A DNA stretch of 64,000 nucleotides, taken from positions 4,785 through 68,784 of the forward strand of contig CAZSLL010000005.1 in NCBI GenBank assembly GCA_964607835.1, written 5' to 3'. The notes beneath the pieces were generated by a model. The model worked only from the letters and a program-made list of their open reading frames with translations. It was not told where the DNA came from and did not search any database. The DNA comes from an uncultured archaeon. Lineage in GTDB: Archaea; Aenigmatarchaeota; Aenigmatarchaeia; QMZP01. Both the position numbers and the translations under genes were made by a program. Every line of letters begins with the position of its first letter. The first letter of the stretch is position 1. Below, piece by piece: positions 1-31,115 of this stretch.

Positions 1-1071
1 GCTCGAACCGTTCTTGGCATAGACATCAACAGGACCGCACCAGTAGTCGCTGCATGTTACAGTCGCATAAAGGATGGTCTGGAGGCCGGGCTCGGAAAGG
101 GTGACAGGGTCGAAATAAACATTTTCCAGCCTGACCTCGCCAAGCATTACAGATACCTGCTTTTCGCTGCTGTAGGCGGTTTCCATCTGGTCGAGGTCAG
201 AGTCAGCCTTTATCCGGAATGTGTAATCACCCTTGTCAGCCCCGTATACAGTCCAGGTAAAGGTGCAGGGGTCACCGCTTCCAACCGAACCGCAGGAATA
301 TGGGTTCTGCTGGTACGATATAAGCCCGCTCGTTCCAGAGCTCATGGTAAGGAAGCCGGAAGTGCTTCCCTTTTCCTTGTACTGCAGTTCGGCGTTGACC
401 TGACCGCAGCTGTCCCAGCCACACTGGATATCGGCATGGACATTGAAGGAGTCTGTTTTGGAAATCTCGCCTGAAGGAGGAAGGCCCGAAGTGCTCATCG
501 AGGCTTCCATACCGTATGGCACTTTTTCGTACTGGACCCCAAGCCATGCTTCATAAAGCCACACCTGATATTGCTCGTCGTTGAGCATGAGCTTAATTTT
601 GAACTCGCTCCCGCATTCCTCGAACAATCCAGTGACATCGACACTGAATGTGCTGATTTCATTGTCAAAGCCGAATTTCCTTACGTATTCGTATGCGCCC
701 TGGCTGCAGTCATAGACGTAAATCCTCAGATCTGTGTCTGGATAAGAACGGTAGCTGCTGTGCCTTCCTTTCAGGTACAGCCTCGCGCTCGTGGACTCAA
801 TGATGTAAGAGCCGATTGTTGAGCCGTCGAAGGGGGCGTCAACCCACTTGTACTCCCTGTATACTGAATTTGACACGTAGTCATGATCTTCTGTGGAATG
901 GGTGCACACAGGAATCTTAGAGCTGTCACACTCCCAGCCAAAACAGTTGATGCTGCATGATCTGGCGCAGTCAGGGCATTCCACATAGGCATCAGCCAGA
1001 GCAAGCCCGGGCAATGAGCACAATAGAACAAATAATGCAATGAGGAACAGAATGCATTTGCTCAGCGCCAT
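1..1071 (-). CDS. Secreted cysteine-rich protein, partial (N-terminal part; continues past the window start)
   Basis: I translated the minus strand from the ATG at 1069-1071. The frame stays open for about 357 codons to the window edge. It begins with a signal peptide, MALSKCILFLIALFVLLCSLPGLALA, followed by many Cys residues. It is missing from the ORF track because no stop codon falls inside the window. Confidence 0.45.
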   Translation of the reverse strand, partial: MALSKCILFLIALFVLLCSLPGLALADAYVECPDCARSCSINCFGWECDSSKIPVCTHSTEDHDYVSNSVYREYKWVDAPFDGSTIGSYIIESTSARLYLKGRHSSYRSYPDTDLRIYVYDCSQGAYEYVRKFGFDNEISTFSVDVTGLFEECGSEFKIKLMLNDEQYQVWLYEAWLGVQYEKVPYGMEASMSTSGLPPSGEISKTDSFNVHADIQCGWDSCGQVNAELQYKEKGSTSGFLTMSSGTSGLISYQQNPYSCGSVGSGDPCTFTWTVYGADKGDYTFRIKADSDLDQMETAYSSEKQVSVMLGEVRLENVYFDPVTLSEPGLQTILYATVTCSDYWCGPVDVYAKNGSS

Positions 1072-1129: not shown

Positions 1130-2500
1130 TCAGGTGTTCAGCACCAGGGGCCTTGAGAATATTCTCCTGAGCTTTCCGTTGGGCTTGTTGTACCTTATGT
1201 AGGCCTTGGGCATCTTGAGGTTGCCGCTCACGAGGGCCTTCAGGGGGTAGGTGATTATCCTGGTCTCCTTGGGCCTTATGTCACCAAGCTTCCATATGAG
1301 CTCGGTGCCAGCTTCAGAGCGCTTCACAAGGGGCTTCATGGCGTTTATCTCGTTGTGGGCCACATTGGCGAGGGGAGTGACCCAGTCTCTCACTATGGCG
1401 TTTGAGAGGTTGTGGTAGAAGGGGTTCCTGACCTCGAGGACCACGTGGTGCCTGGGGCCCCCTTTCTTGACATGCCTCTTGATTATCACAGGTGAGCTGG
1501 CCTTGCGCATTCCATACATGAGGAGCAGGAATACCGCCACCAGAACCAGCCCGTAGGTGGCGTATATCGGGGTGTAGTCGAGCCTGTAGGTGAAGCTCTG
1601 CGACTCGCCAACATCCAGGTCGCTGAGCACATAGGTGCATGACTTCTCGTCACCACTGAGTACACACTCGTCAGGCTCGGTAACGAAGCCTGTTATCCAC
1701 TCGTTGCTGGGGACTATCTTGCTGGCCTCATAGACCGGCTCCTTTATGTTTCCCTCATTGACCACCGTTACCTCATATTCATCATACAGCATAGTGGAGG
1801 TCTTCTTGACCATCTCGGTCACCTTGTGCACAGGAGGAACAGTAAACATGCATTCCTTCTCAACTGGCGTGCCCTCCAGGCTAACCCTCACGTTGTAGTC
1901 GCCTGCAAGGATTCCCTTGGGCAGGGGCTCCTCAAGCTCTATGAGCGTCTCTCCGTCCACAGTGACCTGCCTCGAGAACTCCCTGAGCACGGTTCCTGAC
2001 TTGTCAAGCAGGGAGAATTCCAGGCTGGCATTCCTCTCGTCCTTGGAGGTCATTAGCATGGAAAGCGTGCAGGAATCGCCTGACTTTGAGGTCCTGAACT
2101 CGGCTATGTCAAGGGGCCTCAGCACATTCAGGGTGACCTCCTGGAAGGTGCTCGCTTTTGACAGGCTGTGGGAAAAGGCGCTGACCATGTATGTGAATTC
2201 GCCTGGTGTCTCGCCTGTGGGGAAGAACTGGACGCTGAAATCAGACTCCCAGCTGCCGGGAACACTGAGAAAACCAGGGTAACCCGAAATCCATTCCTGT
2301 GGTTCGCCTGAGACCGATACGCCCAGGTTGTTCCTAAGGGCCTGGTTGTTGCTTATGGTGAAATTGAAGGTCACCTCGTCCCCAAGGTACACGTCGAGGT
2401 TGCTCTGCTCTGCCTCCATCTCCAGATAGCTGGCGGACGCAGGGACTGGTATAATAAGAAGTGAAACCAAAATCAATATGAGCAAAATGTCACGCCTCAT
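1130..2500 (-). CDS. Secreted/surface protein with N-terminal signal peptide and C-terminal TM anchor
   Basis: 456 aa. The N-terminus is hydrophobic (ILLILILVSLLIIPVPASA). A single TM segment lies near the C-terminus (GLVLVAVFLLLMYGM) and is followed by basic residues. I recognise no catalytic motif. Confidence 0.5.
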   Translation of the reverse strand: MRRDILLILILVSLLIIPVPASASYLEMEAEQSNLDVYLGDEVTFNFTISNNQALRNNLGVSVSGEPQEWISGYPGFLSVPGSWESDFSVQFFPTGETPGEFTYMVSAFSHSLSKASTFQEVTLNVLRPLDIAEFRTSKSGDSCTLSMLMTSKDERNASLEFSLLDKSGTVLREFSRQVTVDGETLIELEEPLPKGILAGDYNVRVSLEGTPVEKECMFTVPPVHKVTEMVKKTSTMLYDEYEVTVVNEGNIKEPVYEASKIVPSNEWITGFVTEPDECVLSGDEKSCTYVLSDLDVGESQSFTYRLDYTPIYATYGLVLVAVFLLLMYGMRKASSPVIIKRHVKKGGPRHHVVLEVRNPFYHNLSNAIVRDWVTPLANVAHNEINAMKPLVKRSEAGTELIWKLGDIRPKETRIITYPLKALVSGNLKMPKAYIRYNKPNGKLRRIFSRPLVLNT

Positions 2501-3680: not shown

Positions 3681-4319
3681 ATGGTTGACTCCAGGATAGT
3701 CAAGTACATCAATGACACTCTTTCTGCGGGATACAGCGAGGCTGACGTCAGGAAAGCCCTGGTGGGACAAGGATGGACGCCCCAGGAGGTAGAGGAGGCG
3801 TTCTCGCTGGCCGAGGCAGGCCAGGCTCCTGCAAAGGCGGCACAGAAGCCGGCGCAGGCAAAGCAGGGCGACAAGGCCCAGCAAAAGCCCGTTTCACCTA
3901 ATGAGCAAGAAATGGCCCAGAAGGCCCAAGCTGCACCTTCCGGGGCACAGGGGCCTGGCATAATCAGCGGCTCCTTTCTCATGATGGCCGCGGGCGGTGC
4001 CCTTATAATAGCAAACTCTGTCATGACACTGCTTGGAGCCGGCGACCTTCTGGCATTGTTCATGTCTAACATGGAATTCTCGCTGATGGGCATGTTCGAC
4101 GTTCAGCTCTCTGCGATGGACTCTTTCCTCGTGAACATGATAATAGGCGTATTCGTGCTGGCATCCTCTTTCATAGTGGTGAGGATGCCTGACAAGGCAA
4201 AGATAACAGCAGCATTCGTTATAGTCCTGTCAATAATATCCATTCTCATCGGGAACGGCTTCCTGATAGGAGGCCTGGTTTCTGTTCTCGGGGGCGTGTT
4301 CACCATGCTGGGCAAGTGA
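3681..4319 (+). CDS. Membrane protein (N-terminal soluble domain, Ala/Gln/Lys-rich linker, four predicted C-terminal TM helices)
   Basis: This reading is based on the hydropathy pattern of the translation. A TATA-like element (tttatagcc, near 3645-3655) lies about 27 bp upstream of the ATG. Confidence 0.45.
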   Translation: MVDSRIVKYINDTLSAGYSEADVRKALVGQGWTPQEVEEAFSLAEAGQAPAKAAQKPAQAKQGDKAQQKPVSPNEQEMAQKAQAAPSGAQGPGIISGSFLMMAAGGALIIANSVMTLLGAGDLLALFMSNMEFSLMGMFDVQLSAMDSFLVNMIIGVFVLASSFIVVRMPDKAKITAAFVIVLSIISILIGNGFLIGGLVSVLGGVFTMLGK

Positions 4320-4364: not shown

Positions 4365-4718
4365 ATGTCATCTTCAGTGAACGCTGTTCTGATGATTTTC
4401 GCCATTTCCCTCTGCATAGCGCCAGCTCTGGCTGAGGCACAGTCAATCAATATAGTTCCGTGCTCCACGGGTGACACCAGGCCCTGCGGAAGCGGTGTGG
4501 GCGAGTGTGAGAAGGGGGTGACCACCTGCGAAAACGGCATATGGGGCGAATGCGATGGGGGAGTGGAGCCTGTCGAGGAGGACTGCTCCGACGGACTGGA
4601 CAATGACTGCAACGGGCTTGTGGATGACTGCGGATTCAACACCGTGTCCTACATGCTCATAGGCGCGGGGCTGATGCTTCTTGTCGTGGCCCTTGTGCTG
4701 AACAAGCTTGGAAAGTAG
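4365..4718 (+). CDS. Small secreted Cys-rich protein with a MopE-like putative metal-binding motif and a C-terminal TM anchor
   Basis: It has a signal peptide, then ...CSDGLDNDCNGLVDDCG..., then a TM segment (MLIGAGLMLLVVALVLN). The same CxDGxDNDCDG motif is repeated in the 1019-aa protein at 16374-19433. Confidence 0.5.
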   Translation: MSSSVNAVLMIFAISLCIAPALAEAQSINIVPCSTGDTRPCGSGVGECEKGVTTCENGIWGECDGGVEPVEEDCSDGLDNDCNGLVDDCGFNTVSYMLIGAGLMLLVVALVLNKLGK

Positions 4719-6167: not shown

Positions 6168-7112
6168 TTATTTGTTTGCAGAGAGCATTAAACTGCCTTC
6201 CCTGACAGCGTCCGAGTATTTCTTCAGGGCGGCATCGAAACTATCCCCCATCTCCAGGTATGACCTGATGCTCTCCACGCGCTCTACATAGTCATTGCAC
6301 TCTTTCTCATGCTTGCCCTTTCCGTTGGGTCCGGCGAAATAGCACTTGAGGGCCTCTTCCATGTCACCATCCTCATGAACCTCATAGTGCTTGAGAAGGG
6401 CCATGCCAGTCACAATGTTTGCGTAGGGGGATTCCCTCACCCTTTCCCAGACCTCCTCAGGGCCTCCCCCGAAGATATGGGCATACTTCTCAAGGGCATA
6501 CTCTCCTATTTCCTTTCTGGAATCATTGAATCTCTTTCCTTTGCCTGAGAAGAGCTCTCTCGTCTCGGCGCTTGAGACCTGGTTGAGCTGCATGTATCCG
6601 ACATTCCCTGTAATGGATTCAGCATCATGGTCTCCCCATGATTCCTTTCCTATCATTGCAAGAACGAGTTCAGGGTCGAGATTGAAATCACCTGCCACCT
6701 CATTCACGATACTCACGAAACCAGGTTCATCAGGTACGGTTGCAGCGCTCCTATAAGGCTCCGGCCCCGACCCCAGGTCTTCAGAGCTGAAGCCGGTCCT
6801 GGGGTTTATCATTGTTGGTTCAGGCACTAGGTCAGGGGCAGAGGCCGCCTTGGAAGGGTCAAAAGGAGGAGGCTCGTTCTCCTTCCAGGTTCCCTTTTGG
6901 CTCTCTTCCAGGAAATCCCTGTCCCTTTCATCGGCTTTACCTGGATGAGGCTGCCCAACATTCTCATAAGGATAATACATTGCATCAGCATCGTGGTCTC
7001 TCGGGATGCCAAAGAGGGCTGCAAGGCTCATGAATCCAGCAGCAGCTATCTCCACAGCGTATCTGGACACGAAGCCCCTTCCTTCACCAATCCCGGAGGT
7101 TTCTCTAGACAT
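6168..7112 (-). CDS. SLT-domain (lytic transglycosylase-like) protein with a low-complexity Pro/Glu-rich N-terminal region
   Basis: The C-terminal half contains the SLT motifs LVLAMIGKESWGD (catalytic Glu-Ser), GYMQLNQVSSAE and PYANIVTGMALLKHY...YFAGPNG. Confidence 0.5.
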   Translation of the reverse strand: MSRETSGIGEGRGFVSRYAVEIAAAGFMSLAALFGIPRDHDADAMYYPYENVGQPHPGKADERDRDFLEESQKGTWKENEPPPFDPSKAASAPDLVPEPTMINPRTGFSSEDLGSGPEPYRSAATVPDEPGFVSIVNEVAGDFNLDPELVLAMIGKESWGDHDAESITGNVGYMQLNQVSSAETRELFSGKGKRFNDSRKEIGEYALEKYAHIFGGGPEEVWERVRESPYANIVTGMALLKHYEVHEDGDMEEALKCYFAGPNGKGKHEKECNDYVERVESIRSYLEMGDSFDAALKKYSDAVREGSLMLSANK

Positions 7113-8291: not shown

Positions 8292-8549
8292 ATGGGAAGG
8301 ACATACTACAAGAGGGGATGGTCCCACACCAAGACCAGGGGCAAGGAAGGAAGCGTGACCTGCGGGTTCTGCGGCAAGAGGGTGCCAAGGTACAAGGCAT
8401 TCCCCACATTCAAGGGATTCTCCCTGAGCGACCCTGTCATAAAGGCAGAGCTCGGGACAAAGGGAAGGAGGCTCAACCTCTCCTCGCAGAAGGTTTACGC
8501 CTGCCCCGCGTGCGCAAGGCACAGGAACATAGTCAGGAAGAAGAGATAA
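8292..8549 (+). CDS. rps26e: Ribosomal protein S26e
   Basis: It has CGFCGKRVPRYKA...YACPACARHRNIVRKKR, which corresponds to the S26e signature CxxCxxxVPKDKA...YCVSCAIHSKVVRNR. I placed the start at MGRTYYKRGW. Confidence 0.6.
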   Translation: MGRTYYKRGWSHTKTRGKEGSVTCGFCGKRVPRYKAFPTFKGFSLSDPVIKAELGTKGRRLNLSSQKVYACPACARHRNIVRKKR

Positions 8550-8602
8550 TCTCTGGTTTTGTAAATAATAACCCTTATTACCGGGAAAGAACAATTATAA
8601 AC

Positions 8603-9481
8603 ATGGCTTTCGGCGCTTACAAGCGGCTCTCTGTGAGGGTTTTCGGAGGGTTCGCAAAGTCCTCTGAGAACAGCTTCAGGTCAATCGGGCCCTGGATGAA
8701 AGGGGCGGGCATCCACATGCTCGCAAGGACCTACATCTCCATGATTTACATGACCACTGTGCTGGCCTACATAGCGGGGCTGGCAACCGCGCTGGTTCTG
8801 AGCTCCCTTTTCGTGGAGGACCTGGTCATGATGGTGTACTACGTGACCTTCGGGCCTGTTCTCGGGGCCTCGGTTGTGTTCATGCTGCTGTATATATACC
8901 CGTCGAGCAGGTACAAGTCGGCCAGGAGGTCCATTGACAACAACCTCCCATTCGCGCTGATACACATGGACTCAATCTCCTCCTCAGGCATTCCAACGGA
9001 GTTTATGTTCGAGCTCCTGGGCAAACTGAAGGAATACGGGGAGATATCCAGGCAATCCAGACTGGTCATGAGGAACATAAAGACCTTTGGCATGAGCTCC
9101 ATAAGCGCTATCAACGACGTGGCAGAGAAGAGCCCGTCGCCTGCATTCAGGCAGGTCCTGACCGGAATCAGCTCCACGGTGGGGAAGGGAGGGAACCTCT
9201 CCGGTTACCTGAAGGAGATGAGCGAGAAGAACCTATTCGAGTACAGGATGAGTAGAGAGAAGTACGTCAAGACACTATCGACTTACGCGGACGTATACAC
9301 GGCTGTGCTGATAGCTGCCCCGCTCATGTTCCTTTCTGTGCTGGTCATGATGAACGTGATAGGGGGGGATGTGCTGGGAATGGCCATACCTGACTTCATA
9401 AATCTCATGACATATGTCATCGTGCCTGCCATGAACATCGGATTCCTGGCCTTCCTGCACACCAGCCACCCGGGAAGTTAA
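8603..9481 (+). CDS. FlaJ/TadC-like polytopic membrane protein (type IV pilus/archaellum assembly platform)
   Basis: The profile is multi-TM with a cytoplasmic domain between TM1 and TM2, typical of T2SS-F/FlaJ. It is convergent with the FlaI-like ATPase. I placed the start at the internal ATG (MAFGAYKRL). Confidence 0.6.
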   Translation: MAFGAYKRLSVRVFGGFAKSSENSFRSIGPWMKGAGIHMLARTYISMIYMTTVLAYIAGLATALVLSSLFVEDLVMMVYYVTFGPVLGASVVFMLLYIYPSSRYKSARRSIDNNLPFALIHMDSISSSGIPTEFMFELLGKLKEYGEISRQSRLVMRNIKTFGMSSISAINDVAEKSPSPAFRQVLTGISSTVGKGGNLSGYLKEMSEKNLFEYRMSREKYVKTLSTYADVYTAVLIAAPLMFLSVLVMMNVIGGDVLGMAIPDFINLMTYVIVPAMNIGFLAFLHTSHPGS

Positions 9482-9564
9482 AGCAATATCAGATTATTAC
9501 TTAATGCAGAACAGCATGCCAATGACAATAAGGAAGGCCAAACCCAGGAATGCGCAGCTCTGAA

Positions 9565-11481
9565 TCACTCTTTGGGATTTGCTTTCTTCTCCGCTTTCTG
9601 CGCGGGAGCTGCTGACTCCTCCGCTTTCTGCGCGGGAGGATTTGCTTTCTTCGGGGGTGACTCTTTTTCCTCCCCTCTCTTCGGGGGTGACTCTTTTTCC
9701 TCCCCTCTCTTCGGGGGTGACTGCTGTTTACTGGAAAGCTCAGACTCTGCCAGTTCCTCGTAGTCCTCGAGTACACCACTGATGCCATTTCTCCCGGGCT
9801 TATGCCTGGGCCTGGGCTTCTTCTTTGAGGCTGCCTCCTTGGCATGCTTCTCGGCATTCTCGGCCTTCTTAACCCTTTCCTTCTTGAATGGGGTTCTGTT
9901 CTCCCTGACCCATTTCATCACAGTAGGCTGGTCCTTGTAGTAGAGGTTGATAATCCTGCAAACGTCATGGAAGTACACAACAGAATGGGCCTGCATCCAT
10001 TCTATAACCTTCTTCCGCCTCTCGAGCTCTTCGCTCATCCTCCCGAAGGCCAGCCCCTCTTCAAATGATATCCTCTGGAGAATCTCAGAGCTGCCCGTGC
10101 TCTCCCTGTATACGTCCTCAGACGGAATCCAGGAGAATGACTCCTTGGTATGGGCCCGCCCTGTGTGGGAATCCACTGACTGGATTTCCACTATCCTCTT
10201 GACCCTTCTGGATGATTTGCCCTTCTCCTTTGCGTTGGTCATCACGACCATGGCGTCCAGGGCCTCCAGAAGGGAGGGCGAGAGCTCTATGGGAGGGGTA
10301 CTCAACCTCTTTATGACGTCTTCCACAGAGCCTGCGTGTATGGTGCCAAGCGAGGCGTGGCCCGAGGCCATTCCCTGGAACATGACGTAGGCCTCTTTTC
10401 CCCTGACCTCGCCCACCACAACGTATGACGGGTTCTGCCTGAAGGACTCTCTGAGAAGGTCGTAGAGCCCTATCTCCCCGTACCTTTTCCCGTTCGCCTC
10501 TGGCATACCGAAGCCCCTTCTGGATACCGATGGAATCCAGTTATCGTGGGGCAGGTTGATTTCCCTTGTGTCCTCGATAGAGATTATCTTGTCCTCGGGG
10601 GGTATGAACATGCTTATGGCGTTCAGGAAGGTGGTCTTTCCGGTGGAGACGCCCCCGCATATCATTATCGAGACATTGTACTGGCAGAGCAGCCAGAGAT
10701 AGGCAAGCATGGATGATGATACAGTGCCCATGTTTAGGAGGTCTATGGGCGAGAACGGGTGGCTCCTGAACTTCCTTATCGAGAAGCTCGGGCCCTTGGT
10801 GGTGACGTCCTTTGCCAGCGAGGCCTGCACCCTGGAGCCGTCCGGAAGGCTTCCGTCGAGCAGGGGAGACGCGTAGGATATGTACCTTCCGCACCTCTCA
10901 GCAATCTTGATTACCAGGTCAGAGAGGTAGTCATTGTCCCTGAAGGTAAGATTGGTCCTTATGGAGCCGAATACCTTATGAACCACGTATATCGGGCTTC
11001 CCACGCCGTTGCAGCCTATGTCCTCTATGTAGGGGTCGTGCATCAGGGGCTCTATCTCGTTGAGGCCTATGAAGTCACGGGCTATGTAGTACATCACCCT
11101 CTGGAAGGGCTTCCCGCCGAGGGTGAGGCCGAGCTCGTCAATGGCCTCCACGACCTTGCCCTGGAGATAGGACAGGGTCTTCTCGTCCTTCTGGAGGCTC
11201 TCCAGCTTGACGTCTATGACCTCCCTGAGGGCCTCCTCTATACTTGATATGGCCTTGTGCTCAGCAGGCCTGAGGCCAGGCTCCTCCAGGCTGTACAGAA
11301 GGGACTTCTCTTTCTGTGACCACTTTATCCTGGCGTGGGCATGGGGATCTATAAGGGGGTACCTTACATCAACCTTTGATGCGCTCTTGAATCCTGGTAT
11401 AACTACCAGCTTCTTGGGCTCCCTGAAGGAGAGAGGCTTATATCTCTTCTCGCTTTTCCTGAACAGACCCCTGAGCGCCAT
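9565..11481 (-). CDS. FlaI/VirB11/PilB-family secretion ATPase with a C-terminal Lys/Glu-rich repeat extension
   Basis: It has Walker A GGVSTGKTTFLNA, the Asp and His boxes, and Walker B VVVGEVRG. The C-terminus carries repeats (SPPKRGEEKESPPKRGEEKE...APAQKAE) encoded by the dispersed DNA repeats. Confidence 0.8.
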   Translation of the reverse strand: MALRGLFRKSEKRYKPLSFREPKKLVVIPGFKSASKVDVRYPLIDPHAHARIKWSQKEKSLLYSLEEPGLRPAEHKAISSIEEALREVIDVKLESLQKDEKTLSYLQGKVVEAIDELGLTLGGKPFQRVMYYIARDFIGLNEIEPLMHDPYIEDIGCNGVGSPIYVVHKVFGSIRTNLTFRDNDYLSDLVIKIAERCGRYISYASPLLDGSLPDGSRVQASLAKDVTTKGPSFSIRKFRSHPFSPIDLLNMGTVSSSMLAYLWLLCQYNVSIMICGGVSTGKTTFLNAISMFIPPEDKIISIEDTREINLPHDNWIPSVSRRGFGMPEANGKRYGEIGLYDLLRESFRQNPSYVVVGEVRGKEAYVMFQGMASGHASLGTIHAGSVEDVIKRLSTPPIELSPSLLEALDAMVVMTNAKEKGKSSRRVKRIVEIQSVDSHTGRAHTKESFSWIPSEDVYRESTGSSEILQRISFEEGLAFGRMSEELERRKKVIEWMQAHSVVYFHDVCRIINLYYKDQPTVMKWVRENRTPFKKERVKKAENAEKHAKEAASKKKPRPRHKPGRNGISGVLEDYEELAESELSSKQQSPPKRGEEKESPPKRGEEKESPPKKANPPAQKAEESAAPAQKAEKKANPKE

Positions 11482-11518
11482 GTATATTAATTGTCCAGGC
11501 CAGTTAAAATTAGTTCAC

Positions 11519-12211
11519 TCATCTCATTTTCATGAGGGCCTCTTCGTCCGGGTAGACCTCTATGCCCTTTCCTGTTATCCTGTAGGGGTGAAGCTTCTCT
11601 GAGTGATTGGAGCCCCTGACCTTCCACACCTGGATTGCCCTTGAGAATGCTGACTGAATCCTCTCGTAGTAGAGCACCACGACGCTGTCTGTCACGAACT
11701 CCTCCACACCGTAGCGTGATATGCCCCGTGTGCCGGGAACTATCTCGCTCACCAGGAGGGAGGTGCAGCCGAGCTTCCTGAGTATCATGGAGAGGTCGAA
11801 TATCATTTTCCTGAGCTCTGAGTCATCCTTTACGTGAAGCCCCAGGGCTGAGATGGAATCCACCACCACCCTCTTTGCCTTGACCTCCCTTACCTTTGAC
11901 TCCAGGATGTCGAAAACCTCCTCTATGTGGTAAGGGTCGTACTTGATGAAAGCAAAATCCCCGCTCTTCTCCAGGGAGGCCAGGTCCCAGCCGAACTCCT
12001 TGACGTTCTCCTTTATGGCTTCAGCGGGCTCCTCGAAGGAGAGGTACACGCCCTTCTCCTTGAACTTTCTGATTCCCTCGTATATGAACTGGGTGCAGAA
12101 AGTGGTCTTTCCCGTTCCGCTCGTGCCAGTGATGAGTGCCAGCTGCGCCTGGGGTATGCCTCCGCCCAGAATCTTGTCCATGCCCGGTATTCCGGTCTTT
12201 AGCTTGTCCAT
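11519..12211 (-). CDS. KaiC/RecA-superfamily ATPase (FlaH-like)
   Basis: It has Walker A GTSGTGKTTF and a KaiC-like fold signature (GIPGMDKILGGGIP). It sits directly upstream of, and co-directional with, the FlaI-like gene. Confidence 0.7.
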   Translation of the reverse strand: MDKLKTGIPGMDKILGGGIPQAQLALITGTSGTGKTTFCTQFIYEGIRKFKEKGVYLSFEEPAEAIKENVKEFGWDLASLEKSGDFAFIKYDPYHIEEVFDILESKVREVKAKRVVVDSISALGLHVKDDSELRKMIFDLSMILRKLGCTSLLVSEIVPGTRGISRYGVEEFVTDSVVVLYYERIQSAFSRAIQVWKVRGSNHSEKLHPYRITGKGIEVYPDEEALMKMR

Positions 12212-12265
12212 CTTGACACTGTATATAATTGCACGCCGGGTTAAAAATAACACCAGCGGGAGGCA

Positions 12266-12634
12266 TCATCCAATTATCCTGCCAATCTTCTTCGCAGACC
12301 TCTCCATGTTCATGAGAACAAGGCCGATGTTGACCTTGGGCTTCACGAGCACAGTGAGGATGACGTCAGGGGTGGCCCCTATGGACACAAGCTTCCCGTT
12401 TGCAGACTCCACGACGACCTGGATGAACTTTCCTATGCTAAGCTCGTTGCTGGCTGTTTCTCCTGTCCCCACTATGGCCGCGGTCATGGCTGCCACTGCC
12501 TTTGAGTTCACGTCCTCGGGAAGGCTGGACAAAACCATGAGGCCGTCCCTTCTGACCACCGCGGCCCCCTTTATGTCAGCAGCTGACTGGAGCTCGTCCA
12601 GAAGAGCCTTCAGTTCCTCTTCCTTGGTTGACAT
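12266..12634 (-). CDS. Roadblock/LC7-domain protein (MglB-like)
   Basis: 122 aa with a Roadblock/LC7-like pattern (GAAVVRRDGLMVLSSLPED...AAMTAAIVGTGE). Confidence 0.7.
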   Translation of the reverse strand: MSTKEEELKALLDELQSAADIKGAAVVRRDGLMVLSSLPEDVNSKAVAAMTAAIVGTGETASNELSIGKFIQVVVESANGKLVSIGATPDVILTVLVKPKVNIGLVLMNMERSAKKIGRIIG

Positions 12635-12646
12635 TGCATGACCTCC

Positions 12647-13813
12647 TCATATCTCCCATTTCTGCCTCTTGAGCACTATGTCAAAGAGCTTGTCAAGTGC
12701 CTTGTCTGTCCCTTTATTCTTCACGGCAACAATGCCAACAGCGGGATAGCCAAGCTCCTTCTCTATCTTTTTAGGGGACAACGCCCCCTTCATGTCCTGT
12801 TTGTTGGCCAGGACAAGAACAGGTATGCCCTTTGACTTTATCTTCCTGAGCATCTGCTTTGCCCTCTTTATGCTATCGGGCTGGGTGGAGTCCACCACCA
12901 GGAGAATGCCCAGCGTGCTCTTGGAGAGCATCTGGAGGGTCCAGTCAAACCTCTCCTGCCCGGGGGTGCCAAACAGGTCCACTGACATGCCCTTCTTTTC
13001 CACGTGACCGTGGTCCAGGGCTATGGTGGTGCCCATCCTGTCTATGCTAACAGGCCTCTGGGAAAGGGCCTTCACCACAGAGGACTTGCCAGCGTGGAAG
13101 GGGCCTGTCACGAGTATCTTCGGGATGTACATGGAAATGCCCGAAGGCGTTATCTCAAAGGGTATGGCGAACTTGAGCCTTGGCTTATGAACATAAAGCT
13201 GCTTGAGCACGAGTCCCTTGCTGTCAAAGGCCTTGAGCCATATCACATAATCAAAGCACTTGGCGAATCGCTGTATGTTGCTTGGCTTGAAGCCTATGTT
13301 GGCCATCAGGTAATATGAGATTGTCCTGGTGTCCCTGAGGTCCTTCTCAGTGTCCTTCAGGAACCTTTCCACATCGCTCCAGTGGCCTACCCAGAAATCC
13401 AGGGAATCGAACACAGCAGTGGTGCCATACCCCTTCATGCTCTTCAGGGCATTCCTGAAGACCTTCTTGGACTTCTCTATGTAAGGCCTTACGTTTATGG
13501 TCTTCTCATCTATCGAGTAGCTCTCCCTGCTCTTCCTTCCCAGGCTGTAGGATATGCCGTCTATGAAGGACATCTTGCTGCTGAACCTCTGCCAGCCGGA
13601 TATGTTCTGCTTTATGTAGTCAGGGGTCTTGTTGTTGATGAAGTATATGCCGTTGTCCCCCTCCTTCAGCCTGCTCGCCATGATGCTTATGCCGAACATG
13701 GCCTTGTCCACGAGCATGTCTGATATGACCAGGACCCTGGAGCCGTCCTCGAATCCGCCGTCAAAGAACTCATCGAGCTTGGGAATCGTGGTGGAGACTT
13801 TCATATGGCTCAT
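12647..13813 (-). CDS. Fusion of a degenerate KaiC-like domain (no P-loop) with a small Ras-superfamily, MglA-like GTPase
   Basis: The C-terminal 150 aa have G1 GPFHAGKSS, G3 DLFGTPGQE and G4 NKQD. The N-terminal domain is KaiC/RecA-like but lacks Walker A. Confidence 0.65.
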   Translation of the reverse strand: MSHMKVSTTIPKLDEFFDGGFEDGSRVLVISDMLVDKAMFGISIMASRLKEGDNGIYFINNKTPDYIKQNISGWQRFSSKMSFIDGISYSLGRKSRESYSIDEKTINVRPYIEKSKKVFRNALKSMKGYGTTAVFDSLDFWVGHWSDVERFLKDTEKDLRDTRTISYYLMANIGFKPSNIQRFAKCFDYVIWLKAFDSKGLVLKQLYVHKPRLKFAIPFEITPSGISMYIPKILVTGPFHAGKSSVVKALSQRPVSIDRMGTTIALDHGHVEKKGMSVDLFGTPGQERFDWTLQMLSKSTLGILLVVDSTQPDSIKRAKQMLRKIKSKGIPVLVLANKQDMKGALSPKKIEKELGYPAVGIVAVKNKGTDKALDKLFDIVLKRQKWEI

Positions 13814-13904
13814 TGATTAATTGTCGGGCCGGTCTTAAATACATTCGAGGGGGCCATTTTTCAGGGTATGATTTATAATGAATCGAGACGAATAATATCA
13901 TAGT

Positions 13905-14600
13905 ATGAAGAGCGCGACAGGAATTAAGAAGCTGGACGCCCTGCTTAAGGGGGGGTTCCCTGACAACTCCACCATACTGGTGAGGGGCGCCACAGGAACC
14001 GGCAAGTCAACGCTCTGTCAGCAGTTCATAAGGTCAGGCCTGAATACCTCCCAGCCCGCTGTTTACATAACCCTTGACACCTCCCCGGAGGACATACTCG
14101 AGAACATGAAGAGGTTCGGCGGGGGAATGGAGAAGTTCCTCACCAAAAAGGGAATGGTTTTCCTTGATGCTTATTCATGGAAAACGGGTGGGGGGAAGGA
14201 TGAGGACTGGAAGAGGGTTCTGAGGGGAGGGCTTGACATAAACAGCATAAATGTCATGCTCTCTGACATACTCAGGGAGCTAGACAGGGATGGCAAGAGG
14301 AGCGTTTTCGACTCAGTCTCAACGCTACTGCTCTACATACCCGTGGAGCTGGTGGTCAGGTTCATCCCAATCCTCATAGCAAAGTGCAAGCAGGCAAAAT
14401 CAACCCAGGTCCTCATACTCGAGGAGGGTGTCCACGACAAGGAAATCGTCAACACCATGGCATATCTCTCAGACGGGGTGATAGAAATGAAGCAGGAGGG
14501 CAACAAGAAAATGCTCAGGGTCAGCAAGATGAAGGGAATCTCCTGCACCAGGGACTGGATGGATTACGACATCAAGGAATCAGGCCTTGAGATTGCCTGA
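13905..14600 (+). CDS. KaiC/RecA-superfamily ATPase
   Basis: It has Walker A GATGTGKSTL and a KaiC-like architecture. It is divergent from the GTPase gene. Confidence 0.7.
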   Translation: MKSATGIKKLDALLKGGFPDNSTILVRGATGTGKSTLCQQFIRSGLNTSQPAVYITLDTSPEDILENMKRFGGGMEKFLTKKGMVFLDAYSWKTGGGKDEDWKRVLRGGLDINSINVMLSDILRELDRDGKRSVFDSVSTLLLYIPVELVVRFIPILIAKCKQAKSTQVLILEEGVHDKEIVNTMAYLSDGVIEMKQEGNKKMLRVSKMKGISCTRDWMDYDIKESGLEIA

Positions 14601-16373: not shown

Positions 16374-19300
16374 TTAAGAGGAGCCCCAATTGCTCTTTAG
16401 GTTCTCCCACGTGAGTTCCTGGTTGTTCCTTTTGAAGTAGTACCAGAGCACCAGGACAACCGCCAGTATGACAATCCCTATCAGTGAGAGTAACCACCAG
16501 GGAAAGCCCCCGCCGTCTTGCGGTGTGGACTGATCCCCGCAGCCCTCGTCTATCTGGCCGTCGCAGTCGTTATCTATGCCGTCCCCGCAAATCTCTGTGG
16601 AGGGGAATATCGCACCCACGCAGTCGCTCCACTGGCCGTCCACGCATGTGGATGAGCCCAGGGCGCAGACCCCCATATTGGACTCCCCGCAGGGCTTTGT
16701 TTCGCCCTCGCTGATGCACTCGCAGCCATTGTTGACCGTGCCATCACAGTCATCGTCCCTGGAGTTTCCGCAGTCCTCTGTGGCCATGGGGAAGATTGCT
16801 CCCTCGCAACGGGTCCATTCCCCGTTAATACAGTCCCTGGAGCCGAACTCGCATATGCCGTAATCAGTGTCAGGGCCGCATGGGGAACCGGAAAGGTCCT
16901 CGTCAACCTCCCCGTCGCAGTCGTCGTCAAGGCTGTTGCAGGCCTCTTCCTCAGGGAGCTGGCCTCCCTCGCATCCCCCCCACATGCCGCTGGGAAGGCA
17001 TGTCCTGTTCCCAGTTCCCCTGCATATCCCCTGACCGTATGCCACCCCGCCGTCTTCTGGGTTGCAGGGCCTGACGTCGCCTGGCTCGCACTCTATGACC
17101 GAGAAGTTGAACGTGCTCTCCCCTGTGTTCTGGTTGACGTCTGTCCTCACTATGGAGAATCCGGTCTTGTCCACGTAGGTCTCGTAGGGAATCTCCCAGG
17201 AAAGGGTCCACTGGGTATCCCCGCTGGAGCCTGTCCTCTGAACCGGCTCCACTTCCTCATCCCCCATCAACAGGGAGACGTGGTCGATTCCTGACTCGTC
17301 GCTCACAATGGCGTTCACAAGCATGGGCTGGTAGTCTGATGATGCCACCTTCTTCGAGTACTGCGGCTCGTCATTGTCAATCTCAGGGGCCTTCGAGTCT
17401 ATGCGGGTGCCCACAATATCTGACCAGTCGCCCTTGTTGCCTGCCATGTCAAAGGCCTGGCAGGAGAAGTAATATGTACTGTTGTGCAGGCCCGTGAAGA
17501 GCCTTGAGGGCTCCTCGATGTCTGTCCAGCCCGAGGTGGGAGAAGTGCAGGGAGAGGGCTCTGATTTTATGCAGAGATCGTATTCCTTTATTCCTGAGCC
17601 AGTGTCCTGGCCTGACCAGTTGAGCATGAACGTGGTCTTGTTAACCACAGGGGGGAGGCTGGAAATATCACAGGAAGGCGGGAACGAGTCGATGACAAAA
17701 TCCTTGGTGTCAGCCTGGCTTGGGTTACCAGCCAGGTCAAAGCCGATCAGGGTAAAGGAGTATTCTCCTCCCTCTGCGCCTTCATACTCGAGGGATTTAA
17801 CCGACCCTCCGAGATGCCGGTAAAATTCACCATCAAGCCTGACGACATAGTAATCCATTCCCATGTCTTCCTGGGCCTCCCATGTGAGAGTGAAATTGCC
17901 CTGATTACTGTATCCAGTGTCGCTTCCTGTGAAAGAGACAACCGGCGGAACCGTGTCAAGTCCCATTGAGTGCATGCCTATAGAGGACGTAACGGTATTC
18001 CCGCTCCTGTCATAAGTTGCCTCGCATTCGAACCTGTACAAACCGTCATCATCCAGGGTAACGTCGCGTGTGGTCTGGGACTCTTCATTAATCGTGAATG
18101 AGTCAACGAACTCCTGGTAGGTGGAGCCACCGTCAAGGCTCCTCTTTGCCTGTATGCTGTATTCCACGAATGTGCTTCCTGAAACCGGGTCTTCGGAAAC
18201 CCACTCAAGCGTTGTTGTGGTCTTGTTGTTGTATTCAGGAAGATTTACAAACTCGCAGGTCGGAAGGTTCCTGTCAATAGTCACATGAAGGGATTTGTGG
18301 CCTTCCTCGTTGCCCACGTAATCCACTGAGTAGAACTCTGTGTAGTAATCGCATGTTTCCCCGTCCGGACAGTCAGAGCCAACGGTGACAGGGTCAGAAT
18401 ACTGCTCAAAACCAGAGCATTGGGTTGCGTCCCTGGCGTGGCACAAAAGGGTTTCAGCCACACCCGATCCCGCGTCCTGCGCGCTAAGCTTGATTACGAA
18501 CTCCTTTCCAACCGTTGTCCCGTCCCCCGGGCAGTCAACGCATGTTGTCTCGGGAGGTTCGGAGTCCCCCCATGTGCCTGAACTGCAGTAGCCCACGTCC
18601 TGGAGTGAGCTTCCGTCGCTATAGCATACGCCGCTGAAGACGCAGCTTCCCTCAGAAGGGCAGCATGAGATGTCATCAGTGCTCTCAGAGCAGACGCCTG
18701 TTCCGGCGTCAATGCAGTAGGAAAGGAATTCATCGCTGTCGTCCCCGCAGCAGCAGTCTGTCTGGTCGCCATCGTCAATGGGGTCGCAGTCGATACCGCC
18801 CGGGCCCCATGCATCGGCCCCCTCTGTGCACTGGCAGGCTTCCTGGTGCTTGTCCATATCAAAGTCGTCTGAGCTCGAAAGGCACATCTGCGAACTGTCC
18901 AGGCATTCGCCCACGAACTCGTACTGGTCATCGCCGCAGCAGCAGGAGGACTGGTCGCCGGACTCATCAGGGTCGCAGTCTATTCCGCCGATGCTCCATT
19001 TTCCCTGGCCGTGTCCGCACTCGCACCAGCCCTGTTCTGAGTCAAAGTCCACGAAATATCCCTCTACCGGTTCGGGGCCAAGCACTTCATAGGTGTTGTC
19101 AGTGAAAAAAACCTTCAGGGTTCCGTTGTACTGGCCCTCGTCAGGGCAGAAGGTGTAGCCTAGGCTGGTTGAGAATACAAAGGGGTCTTCGAGGGTAAGG
19201 CATGTGCCAGAGGTCTCGATATCAAGGTCTATTTCATTGCTGGTGGAGCCTTGGGCTGATATGAGTGTAAGGGTCATGCTGTCAACATCGCACACCTCGC

Positions 19301-19433
19301 ATGGGTCATCAGGAGTCCCCTCGCAGTCAGCGAAATCTGAAATCACGACACCGGATAGTGAGGAAAGAGCGATGGCGATGGATATCAAAGAAAGCATCGT
19401 GAGTGTTCGAATGCTCATAACATATATTTGCAT
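16374..19433 (-). CDS. Large Cys-rich cell-surface protein with internal repeats, MopE-like metal-binding motifs and a C-terminal TM anchor
   Basis: It has a signal peptide and a repeated module GGIDCDPxDxGDQxxCCCGDDxxEF. Four C-terminal repeats carry CxxxDDDCDG. A TM helix (WWLLSLIGIVILAVVLVLWYYF) lies near the C-terminus. Confidence 0.6.
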   Translation of the reverse strand: MQIYVMSIRTLTMLSLISIAIALSSLSGVVISDFADCEGTPDDPCEVCDVDSMTLTLISAQGSTSNEIDLDIETSGTCLTLEDPFVFSTSLGYTFCPDEGQYNGTLKVFFTDNTYEVLGPEPVEGYFVDFDSEQGWCECGHGQGKWSIGGIDCDPDESGDQSSCCCGDDQYEFVGECLDSSQMCLSSSDDFDMDKHQEACQCTEGADAWGPGGIDCDPIDDGDQTDCCCGDDSDEFLSYCIDAGTGVCSESTDDISCCPSEGSCVFSGVCYSDGSSLQDVGYCSSGTWGDSEPPETTCVDCPGDGTTVGKEFVIKLSAQDAGSGVAETLLCHARDATQCSGFEQYSDPVTVGSDCPDGETCDYYTEFYSVDYVGNEEGHKSLHVTIDRNLPTCEFVNLPEYNNKTTTTLEWVSEDPVSGSTFVEYSIQAKRSLDGGSTYQEFVDSFTINEESQTTRDVTLDDDGLYRFECEATYDRSGNTVTSSIGMHSMGLDTVPPVVSFTGSDTGYSNQGNFTLTWEAQEDMGMDYYVVRLDGEFYRHLGGSVKSLEYEGAEGGEYSFTLIGFDLAGNPSQADTKDFVIDSFPPSCDISSLPPVVNKTTFMLNWSGQDTGSGIKEYDLCIKSEPSPCTSPTSGWTDIEEPSRLFTGLHNSTYYFSCQAFDMAGNKGDWSDIVGTRIDSKAPEIDNDEPQYSKKVASSDYQPMLVNAIVSDESGIDHVSLLMGDEEVEPVQRTGSSGDTQWTLSWEIPYETYVDKTGFSIVRTDVNQNTGESTFNFSVIECEPGDVRPCNPEDGGVAYGQGICRGTGNRTCLPSGMWGGCEGGQLPEEEACNSLDDDCDGEVDEDLSGSPCGPDTDYGICEFGSRDCINGEWTRCEGAIFPMATEDCGNSRDDDCDGTVNNGCECISEGETKPCGESNMGVCALGSSTCVDGQWSDCVGAIFPSTEICGDGIDNDCDGQIDEGCGDQSTPQDGGGFPWWLLSLIGIVILAVVLVLWYYFKRNNQELTWENLKSNWGSS

Positions 19434-19517
19434 GAGCTTGAATAAAAAGCCGGCTCCGGGAATGGAACCACTACGCAGGACACTCTAATCACACGAAGAA
19501 CCAAGGAAAGGCCTTTC

Positions 19518-19736
19518 TCAGCAGCACTCCCTGAACTTCTCCGCAGACCGGTCATAGGTCTTTTCTGCTTCCTTTGAGAAAAGGCACCCGGGAATCTCGC
19601 CTCTCTCCCTGTGGTGCCTTATGCACTCGCAGCACATGCCCTGTCTGGAGCACGCCTCGTAGGTGCACGTGCAGTCCCTCAGGTTCCTTTCCCGGTTCAC
19701 GCATTCTGGCATAAACATATTTATCGCCTCCTGCAT
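19518..19736 (-). CDS. Small Cys-rich protein (11 Cys in 72 aa)
   Basis: The ORF is 72 aa and cysteine-rich. I do not recognise its family. Confidence 0.3.
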   Translation of the reverse strand: MQEAINMFMPECVNRERNLRDCTCTYEACSRQGMCCECIRHHRERGEIPGCLFSKEAEKTYDRSAEKFRECC

Positions 19737-30903: not shown

Positions 30904-31048
30904 GCGGGAGTGTCCGAGCGGTCAAAGGGGCAAGGTTGAGGGCCTTGTGGCTTAGAACCCTTTTACAGGAGCCAAAGCGTCCGCAAAAGCGTTCGCGGAA
31001 AACCCGTAAAGGGGTAAGCAATGCCTTCGCAGGTTCGAATCCTGTCTC
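30904..31048 (+). tRNA. tRNA-Leu(GAG) with an insertion of about 66 nt in the variable arm that carries the conserved core
   Basis: The folded parts are acceptor GCGGGAG/CTCCCGC plus A, a class-II D-arm (GAGCGGTCAAA), anticodon stem CAAGG/CCTTG with loop TTGAGGG, and an intact T-arm GCAGG-TTCGAAT-CCTGT. The insert is AGAACCCTTTTACAGG...CCGCAAAAGCGTTCGCGGAAAACCCG.... Confidence 0.6.
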
Positions 31049-31115
31049 CCGCATTACACCTTTCTTTACAGGAGGTCACGACCTTCCTCAAGAAAGCCGT
31101 GGGAAAGAAATAATA

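Follow-up and report, generated by a model that had tools for sequence, protein, structure and literature searches.

What a protein built from motifs named after a copper-binding protein does at the surface of an archaeal cell is the question raised by a gene at positions 16374 to 19433 of the window, by which we mean the whole 64,000-nucleotide stretch analyzed here (contig CAZSLL010000005.1 of GenBank assembly GCA_964607835.1, from an uncultured archaeon). The gene encodes a 1019-residue protein with three cysteine-rich, acidic modules close to its C terminus. These modules match the Pfam family PF11617 (Cu-binding_MopE), and an initial annotation of the window had placed the protein in a family of MopE-like, membrane-anchored surface proteins and had linked such motifs to surface proteins that bind copper. 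We consider it probable, at roughly 60%, that the gene encodes a type I membrane-anchored archaeal surface protein in which the modules form a calcium-stiffened, disulfide-locked stalk and are not copper sites.

A secreted, membrane-anchored mosaic protein

The open reading frame (ORF) at 16374-19433 on the minus strand was confirmed, and its product has 1019 residues. The ORF list, composition, and hydropathy identify this product as an acidic, cysteine-rich type I membrane-anchored surface protein: it is secreted, held by a transmembrane (TM) helix, and carries a disulfide-rich mosaic ectodomain. By composition count, it contains 60 cysteines (5.9%), an even number, all between residues 37 and 965 and none inside the signal, TM, or tail segments. 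Aspartate and glutamate make up 18.4% of the residues, versus 4.0% for lysine and arginine. The other proteins of the window contain 0.2-2.4% cysteine and are balanced in charge, so the unusual composition is specific to the 1019-residue protein and not a genome-wide property. A halophile-type acidic proteome was rejected as the cause of the acidity on the same grounds.

The order of parts can be read directly from the sequence: it runs from a signal peptide through a head (a beta-sandwich and a cysteine-rich CCCGDD domain, whose unit is duplicated here), five immunoglobulin-like (Ig-like) domains, and three MopE-like modules to a TM helix and a cytoplasmic tail. The presumed signal peptide (residues 1-31; 19341..19433, minus strand, as are all coordinates of this gene) was located from hydropathy only: residues 5-31 are hydrophobic, the Kyte-Doolittle peak is 2.25 at residues 13-31, and Arg9 precedes that peak. 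At the other end, a linker that ends in GGGFP (residues 967-978) lies between module 3 and the TM helix (residues 979-998; 16440..16499), which begins with WW after the GGGFPWW linker and reaches a hydropathy of 2.68. The single C-terminal TM helix of the initial annotation is thus borne out. The remaining 21 residues, YFKRNNQELTWENLKSNWGSS (residues 999-1019; 16377..16439), form a cytoplasmic tail with the motif [QE]E[LP][TS]WE. No PGF-CTERM/archaeosortase or MYXO-CTERM sorting model matched the C terminus (NCBIfam, E <= 0.1), and we rejected both modes of sorting; the tail consists of 21 residues with an ELTWE motif and is not a short basic stub.

Between the head and the modules, a stalk of five tandem Ig-like beta-sandwich domains spans residues 296-780 (17094..18548), or 485 residues in all at about 90-105 residues per domain, as located from NCBIfam and Pfam matches and from motif positions. 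A Dx(x)[GNQ]N motif closes each domain (residues 371, 475, 566, 662, and 765). Residues 309-386 match NCBIfam NF047446, an OmpL47-type domain, at 53.1 bits against a cut-off of 40. Pfam Big_7 also exceeds its cut-off in the stalk (25.7 versus 24.1 bits), while fn3 falls slightly below (24.5 versus 25) and the matches to Big_13 and Big_3_2 are weak. Tandem beta-sandwich domains of this kind, here five, are likewise found in OmpL47-type and bacterial Ig-like (Big_7, Big_13, FN3) adhesins. The likeness to OmpL47 itself, a multi-beta-barrel surface protein of Leptospira, is limited to the domain type, as the equivalog model NF047441 scores 40.6 bits against a cut-off of 250; the host here is an archaeon, and a TM anchor takes the place of outer membrane association.

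The start codon is ambiguous among Met1, Met6, and Met13. An identical protein in NCBI (P0001, 1007 residues, encoded on a 77-kb contig) has its start called at Met13. A TATA-like element, TTTTTATT, lies at 19441-19448 (minus strand), about 24 nucleotides upstream of the Met6 ATG (19416-19418), a position that would suggest a leaderless transcript with its start at Met6 rather than at Met1 or NCBI's Met13.

A syntenic ortholog with the same mosaic is found in a JGI metagenome (P0133, on contig L007). It is 41% identical over 683 residues and contains a single CCCGDD unit. Its gene converges with aRF1, and a KaiC-like gene is close by, exactly as in the window. Identity between the adjacent aRF1 proteins is 74%, indicating that the surface protein diverges much faster than its neighbor. 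Fast divergence is typical of exposed proteins. A third protein (P0139, 1114 residues) follows the same plan, including the three modules, the TM helix, and the tail, and close relatives are represented by the fragments P0004 and P0005. The TM helix is conserved in P0004, P0005, P0139, and the protein on L007, and the tail motif [QE]E[LP][TS]WE is common to all of these and the window protein. Weaker versions of the motif stand behind the modules of P0024 (Aenigmatarchaeota) and P0079.

Several further observations concern this C-terminal region. After the TM helix, the tail can be described by a longer motif, W[YL]YF[KR]xx[GN]QE[LP][TS]WE[NS][LV]xxK[WY], which is absent from the 117-residue paralog described below. 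The ortholog P0133 (L007, 7640-7870; JGI 3300041077, contig Ga0452210_009563) carries an in-frame TAG in place of the window's CAG (Gln960, 16554-16556). In this one case, the stop falls inside the third DxDCDG motif, and reading through it restores LDEGC...PFPWW, the TM helix, and QELTWENLKDKW. The TAG may reflect a nonsense mutation or a sequencing error, mark the end of a secreted anchor-less variant, or serve as a site of stop-codon readthrough. A profile search of metagenome contigs with the TM and tail alignment returned no new orthologs but seven unrelated proteins that share only GGGFPWW and a TM helix, and a search of genome contigs with the full-protein alignment returned only bacterial Ig-domain matches. 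The recurrence of GGGFPWW right before the TM helix of otherwise unrelated metagenomic membrane proteins (L009-L015) suggests that it may be a general juxtamembrane motif.

Calcium or copper in the MopE-like modules

The 1019-residue protein matches PF11617 in three stretches at 37.3 bits (E 3.3e-9), above the gathering threshold of 27, so the Pfam assignment of the initial annotation holds. A six-frame motif scan of the whole window found three CxxxD[DN]DC[DN]G motifs in this gene and one in the 117-residue ORF. The four copies that had been counted in the large protein are thus three, in agreement with the three Pfam stretches. The corresponding modules lie at residues 781-847 (16893..17093, ending in EEACNSLDDDCDGEVDED), 848-903 (16725..16892, ending in TEDCGNSRDDDCDGTVNN), and 904-966 (16536..16724, ending in TEICGDGIDNDCDGQIDEGC). 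All three were delimited with PF11617, a module alignment, and an AlphaFold model of the tri-module region, and modules 2 and 3 with the motif scan as well.

The modules are 56-67 residues long, and in each of them the motif forms the second half. The first half is a cysteine-knotted hairpin, PCGxxxGxCxxGxxxCxxGxWxxC, and an acidic loop, P-x-x-E-x-C-[DN]-x-x-D-[DN]-D-C-[DN]-G-x-[VI]-D-[ED], comes next. The loop reads DDDCDGEVDE, DDDCDGTVNN, and DNDCDGQIDE in modules 1 to 3 and DNDCNGLVDD in the 117-residue protein. All four modules are in register with the PF11617 motif and its flanking cysteines, and their consensus is (C)xCxxG[DE]T[RK]PCGxxxxGxCxxGxxxCxxGxWxxCxGxxxPxxExC[DNG]xx(x)D[DN]DC[DN]Gx[VI][DN][DEN].

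Homologs of the modules were sought with the C-terminal 242 residues of the protein. This region matches 289 database proteins, with E values down to 1e-71 and alignments that cover whole 57-residue modules; the best matches are 30-55% identical, and almost all of the 289 had already been annotated with PF11617. Several carry NCBI names such as "MopE-related protein" and "putative metal-binding motif-containing protein." The named homologs belong to Myxococcota/Myxococcales (some with MYXO-CTERM), Bradymonadaceae, Candidatus Paceibacterota, Nanoarchaeota/Nanoarchaeia, and Aenigmatarchaeota. The earlier view of the motifs as mostly those of Myxococcus copper binders is therefore right in that the named relatives are largely Myxococcota, but MopE itself comes from Methylococcus capsulatus. 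Modules of this kind occur widely in Myxococcota, Candidate Phyla Radiation bacteria, and the small, often symbiotic DPANN archaea, and as they are already catalogued and annotated in archaea, they are not new. PF11617 proteins in general contain the same module of about 57 residues, a cysteine hairpin plus an acidic loop, in tandem copies within secreted or anchored proteins. The window protein differs from them in that its modules are membrane proximal within an archaeal mosaic, its anchor is a plain TM helix with an ELTWE tail instead of MYXO-CTERM or another sorting signal, and it joins to the modules a head domain that is absent from the bacterial matches.

A seed hidden Markov model found 474 module matches in 120 of the 289 homologs, and column conservation was computed on 272 full-length instances. 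The conserved noncysteine columns cluster in the acidic half. Read along the loop, its columns are E (97%), C (98%), D/N (97%), D (100%), D/N (97%), D (90%, with N 10%), C (100%), D (84%, with N 15%), G (92%), D (97%), and E/D/N (99%). Histidine is absent from the 186 residues of the three modules (781-966) and from the 117-residue protein, and it accounts for 0.47% of residues across the 272 modules. The AlphaFold model, built from a 32-sequence alignment, has a mean predicted local distance difference test (pLDDT) score of 88.4 and consists mostly of coil and short beta-hairpins, as expected for what would be small disulfide- and metal-stabilized units.

The loop D-[DN]-D-C-[DN]-G-x-x-D fits Dx[DN]xDG exactly and has another acidic ligand some 3-4 residues farther along. 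Dx[DN]xDG is the calcium-binding loop motif of the Rigden class, shared by EF-hand-like and thrombospondin type 3 loops, with an acidic residue at position 9 (PMC3123361). Across the 272 modules, its ligand columns are D in 100%, D/N in 100%, D/N in 99%, G in 92%, and D in 97%. A solved relative in chemistry is the C-rich domain of human teneurin-4 (PDB 7PLP and 7BAM), in which D840, D843, N844, D845, D847, and D851 coordinate Ca2+ in thrombospondin type 3 fashion in a 1.5-A crystal structure (PMC9058538). Tucker et al. had aligned the teneurin core to the PF11617 consensus (PMC3278476). The acidic motifs in the C-rich domain as well as in thrombospondin type 3 have a spacing identical to that of the modules, which after the cysteine follow the teneurin ligands as C-x-D-x-x-D-N-D-x-D-G-x-x-D. 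The module 3 core, CGDGIDNDCDGQID, shares 9-11 of 14 residues with the teneurin core CGDNLDNDGDGLTD and with related and Volvox cores. Like the teneurin C-rich domain, the modules are disulfide-locked, extracellular units in a membrane-proximal or linker position, as found in adhesion proteins. Unlike it, they have neither a third, low-density lipoprotein receptor type A-like calcium site nor a CC pair, and their acidic loop is preceded by a cysteine hairpin that teneurin does not have. Because the conserved Asp/Asn/Glu and backbone-oxygen ligand chemistry fits Ca2+ loops and the modules have no histidine, we infer that calcium is considerably more likely than copper to be their ligand.

On this reading, the acidic loop would be a Dx[DN]xDG-type site, and each module would probably bind one or two Ca2+ ions in the manner of thrombospondin type 3 and of the teneurin C-rich domain. 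The calcium and some four disulfides in each module would make the three modules a rigid, protease-resistant rod or pedestal near the membrane, which would hold the Ig-like stalk and the head away from it. With less confidence, and because of the domain company of the head's relatives (see below) and the fast divergence of the protein, we propose that the head, with the Ig-like stalk, would serve adhesion to or recognition of another cell, a host, or a surface. The conserved tail might contact a cytoplasmic partner, which is speculative.

Several points weigh against calcium. The assignment depends on a linear motif. A module profile, a 28-residue motif profile, and a motif peptide retrieved no teneurin, thrombospondin, or other solved chain even at E <= 10. 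The spacing from the glutamate to the first cysteine differs by one residue from that of teneurin, and the central cysteine of DxDCDG is a glycine there. What copper, as the alternative, has in its favor is the Pfam name Cu-binding_MopE, a PF11617 match above threshold, and the retention on a Cu(II) column that tied an Asp-rich stretch of MopE*, 205-GLDTLDRDGDGSTADADC, to Cu(II) binding. According to the MopE* study (PMC3423442), this binding is only weak (micromolar), and the stretch, the only motif-like one quoted for MopE*, lies in a disordered N-terminal segment that is invisible in the crystal. MopE and CorA, which come from the methanotrophs Methylococcus capsulatus and Methylomicrobium album, are surface associated, contain an Asp-rich DxDGDG-like stretch, and gave the family its name. 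They hold Cu(I) with high affinity at a site of two histidines and a kynurenine (a Trp in sequence) in a beta-fold domain, the crystallized C-terminal domain in the case of MopE, which also holds a separate structural calcium site (PMC3423442 and PMC3912023). Neither that copper site nor the MopE* beta-fold has a counterpart in the histidine-free modules. No sequence similarity to MopE*/CorA was detected when all PDB chains were searched with phmmer and with two profiles. More broadly, no PDB chain matched the C-terminal region (phmmer, E <= 10), the tri-module profile (E <= 1), the 28-residue motif profile (E <= 10), or a single-motif peptide, and the modules had no fold match to any solved structure, MopE* included. 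The cysteines, even in number and all extracellular, fit disulfides rather than free thiol ligands, and the conserved positions match oxygen-ligand calcium loops. We thus regard a copper-binding or copper-scavenging surface protein, with Cys/Asp motifs that chelate the metal at the cell surface, as very unlikely, and the copper binding ascribed to the motifs at the outset is not upheld.

A more radical alternative is that a Cys/Asp-rich sequence has produced the motifs by chance or through its composition and that the ORF is no meaningful member of any family. The repeats are weak at the DNA level, the PF11617 model is short (30 positions), and the 117-residue protein scores below its cut-off; however, strong protein-level homology to the 289 database proteins over whole modules, three independent significant alignments between the two window proteins, near-invariant columns in the 272 modules, a confident AlphaFold model, and a syntenic ortholog refute a compositional origin, to which we assign next to no probability. 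The protein might instead be a surface layer (S-layer)-like structural component of the envelope, a major lattice or spacer element in which the calcium modules serve as a pedestal and nothing acts as an adhesin. Archaeal envelope proteins commonly combine a signal-like segment with a TM anchor at the C terminus and a long, beta-rich ectodomain. The window protein has all three, and its position next to aRF1 is kept in a related genome. On the other hand, N-glycosylation sequons are not enriched (8 observed versus 6.1 +/- 2.1 expected), no S-layer model of Pfam or NCBIfam matched, and the family is rare and mosaic, with relatives that contain variable adhesion-type domains. The ortholog's in-frame stop before the anchor would also be surprising in an essential lattice protein. 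An S-layer-like role is accordingly the less favored one, and we judge it unlikely.

A rare head domain

The initial annotation had described GGIDCDP...CCCGDD as one of two internal repeat types of the protein. The repeat is present in two copies but belongs to a separate, rare N-terminal domain family, which had been overlooked. The first half of the head (residues 33-135; 19029..19337) is a beta-sandwich with the motifs PCxVCDV, SGTC, GYTFCPxEGxY, and YxVxYD. It is followed by two units of about 64 residues of the form WCxC...GGIDCDP...CCCGDD, at residues 136-199 (18837..19028) and 200-262 (18648..18836), which were recognized from an internal repeat score: their local alignment scores 174, versus 45 +/- 8 for shuffled sequences. 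The repeat itself, GGIDCDPxxxGDQxxCCCGDD, occupies residues 149-169 and 212-232. The head ends with residues 263-295 (18549..18647; CVFxGxCYxDG...CxSGxWxDSxPP), a segment that is conserved in alignments A3 and A4 and has a pLDDT of 66-81. Homologs contain one CCCGDD unit; in P0002, P0003, and P0133, this unit aligns with copy 2. Repeats within the gene are weak at the DNA level, and a recent DNA duplication was rejected as their source.

The head (residues 33-295) has no match in Pfam, NCBIfam, or the sequences of the PDB, searches with a head-domain profile included. Word-indexed searches found few relatives, namely, P0002, P0003, and P0124 to P0127, of which P0124 is labeled Candidatus Diapherotrites. 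We then turned to an exhaustive HMMER search of 1.84 billion cluster representatives with a 10-sequence head profile (A4, with the window protein as the seed). It returned 151 matches at E <= 1e-3, including 82 at E <= 1e-10 and 23 at E <= 1e-30. The largest relatives reach 6834 residues and match in as many as 21 stretches (17 CCGDD motifs). Among 150 relatives retrieved, CCG[DN]D is present in 120, a signal-like N terminus in 96, a C-terminal TM helix in 23, and MopE-type motifs in 7. The domains found in the relatives that were scanned are Laminin_G_3, DUF2341, F5/8-type-C, Big, and CHB_HEX_C.

Judged by these searches, the head is a rare cysteine-rich domain without a Pfam or NCBIfam model, and it stands out as the gene's least ordinary part. 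A wider proposal, which we put forward only tentatively and hold to be somewhat improbable, is that the CCGDD head represents an undescribed family of adhesion or recognition domains largely confined to uncultured archaea. The MopE-like calcium modules, the FPWW TM helix, and the ELTWE tail might form a conserved archaeal unit for surface display and anchoring, with the tail coupled to a cytoplasmic partner, and the protein could be a host attachment factor if the organism is of the DPANN type.

Paralog, neighboring genes, and implications

The 117-residue protein (4365..4718, plus strand) had been described as a minimal version of the large one, and this description stands: BLASTP and hydropathy recover a signal-like segment (residues 1-24), a single complete module (residues 31-90; nucleotides 4455-4634, plus strand) with exactly 8 cysteines in the ectodomain, a TM helix (residues 94-113), and a 4-residue tail. 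BLASTP aligns it with all three modules of the large protein (E 2e-15 for module 3, the best, and 4e-10 and 9e-9 for the others). On its own, it is subthreshold for PF11617 (16 versus 27 bits) and for NCBIfam acid_disulf_rpt (21.9 versus 41 bits). By these alignments, it is nevertheless a genuine one-module paralog, which would display its single module directly on the membrane. The exact sequence also occurs in the Logan assembly SRR7048225. A gene for a 212-residue multipass membrane protein with a soluble N-terminal domain and a weak DUF6114 match (3681-4319, plus strand) ends 46 nucleotides before the 117-residue gene, and the two may be cotranscribed.

Of the family of three TM-anchored proteins originally proposed, the large protein (by its PF11617 match) and the paralog (by its module) remain. 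The third, the partial ORF at 1-1071 (minus strand), is indeed cysteine enriched (16 of 357 residues, 4.5%) and looks secreted, with a signal-like start. It has no motif and no Pfam or NCBIfam match, however, and its best E value against the large protein is 0.065; on its visible sequence, it was rejected as a family member. The adjoining 456-residue ORF (1130-2500, minus strand) has a signal-like start, a TM helix in midprotein, and a weak DUF11/choice-of-anchor-like match, and it too was rejected as a MopE-like protein after Pfam and NCBIfam scans and sequence comparison.

The gene content of the window is archaeal, with aRF1, EF-1alpha, ribosomal proteins (44-54 kb), RtcB, an intron-containing tRNA, and a FlaI/FlaJ/KaiC-type pilus cluster. 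In this analysis, the one hint of a DPANN affiliation comes from the named relatives. The pilus cluster (8318-14600) encodes a FlaJ/TadC-like protein (T2SSF), a FlaI-like ATPase (T2SSE), KaiC-like ATPases, and a KaiC-GTPase fusion; it resembles an assembly system for an archaeal type IV pilus or archaellum-like structure and lies a few kilobases from the surface-protein gene. Directly upstream of that gene, on the same strand, is a 66-residue cysteine-rich ORF (10 cysteines; 19519-19717, minus strand) that matches Pfam DUF6485 (31 bits versus a cut-off of 24), has no signal-like segment, and is probably unrelated to the surface protein. A protein with an SLT (lytic transglycosylase) domain (6168-7112, minus strand; Pfam, 37.6 bits) would not usually be expected in an organism that lacks murein and might bear on interactions with bacteria. 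An Rfam tRNA match of 150 nucleotides at 30904-31053 (plus strand; 39.8 bits) implies a long intron, and ARAGORN reported no tRNA in the window.

These results correct the copper label that the PF11617 family name carries, in that the conserved residues correspond to a calcium loop and not to the MopE copper site. It is therefore probable that hundreds of such proteins carry a misleading "copper-binding" annotation. For archaeal surface biology, the gene offers as leads a rare, unmodeled head that recurs in very large surface proteins and a conserved tail motif after the TM helix, and its conserved position next to aRF1 can be used to locate orthologs. Such proteins would be candidates for host attachment if the organism proved to be a DPANN-type symbiont.

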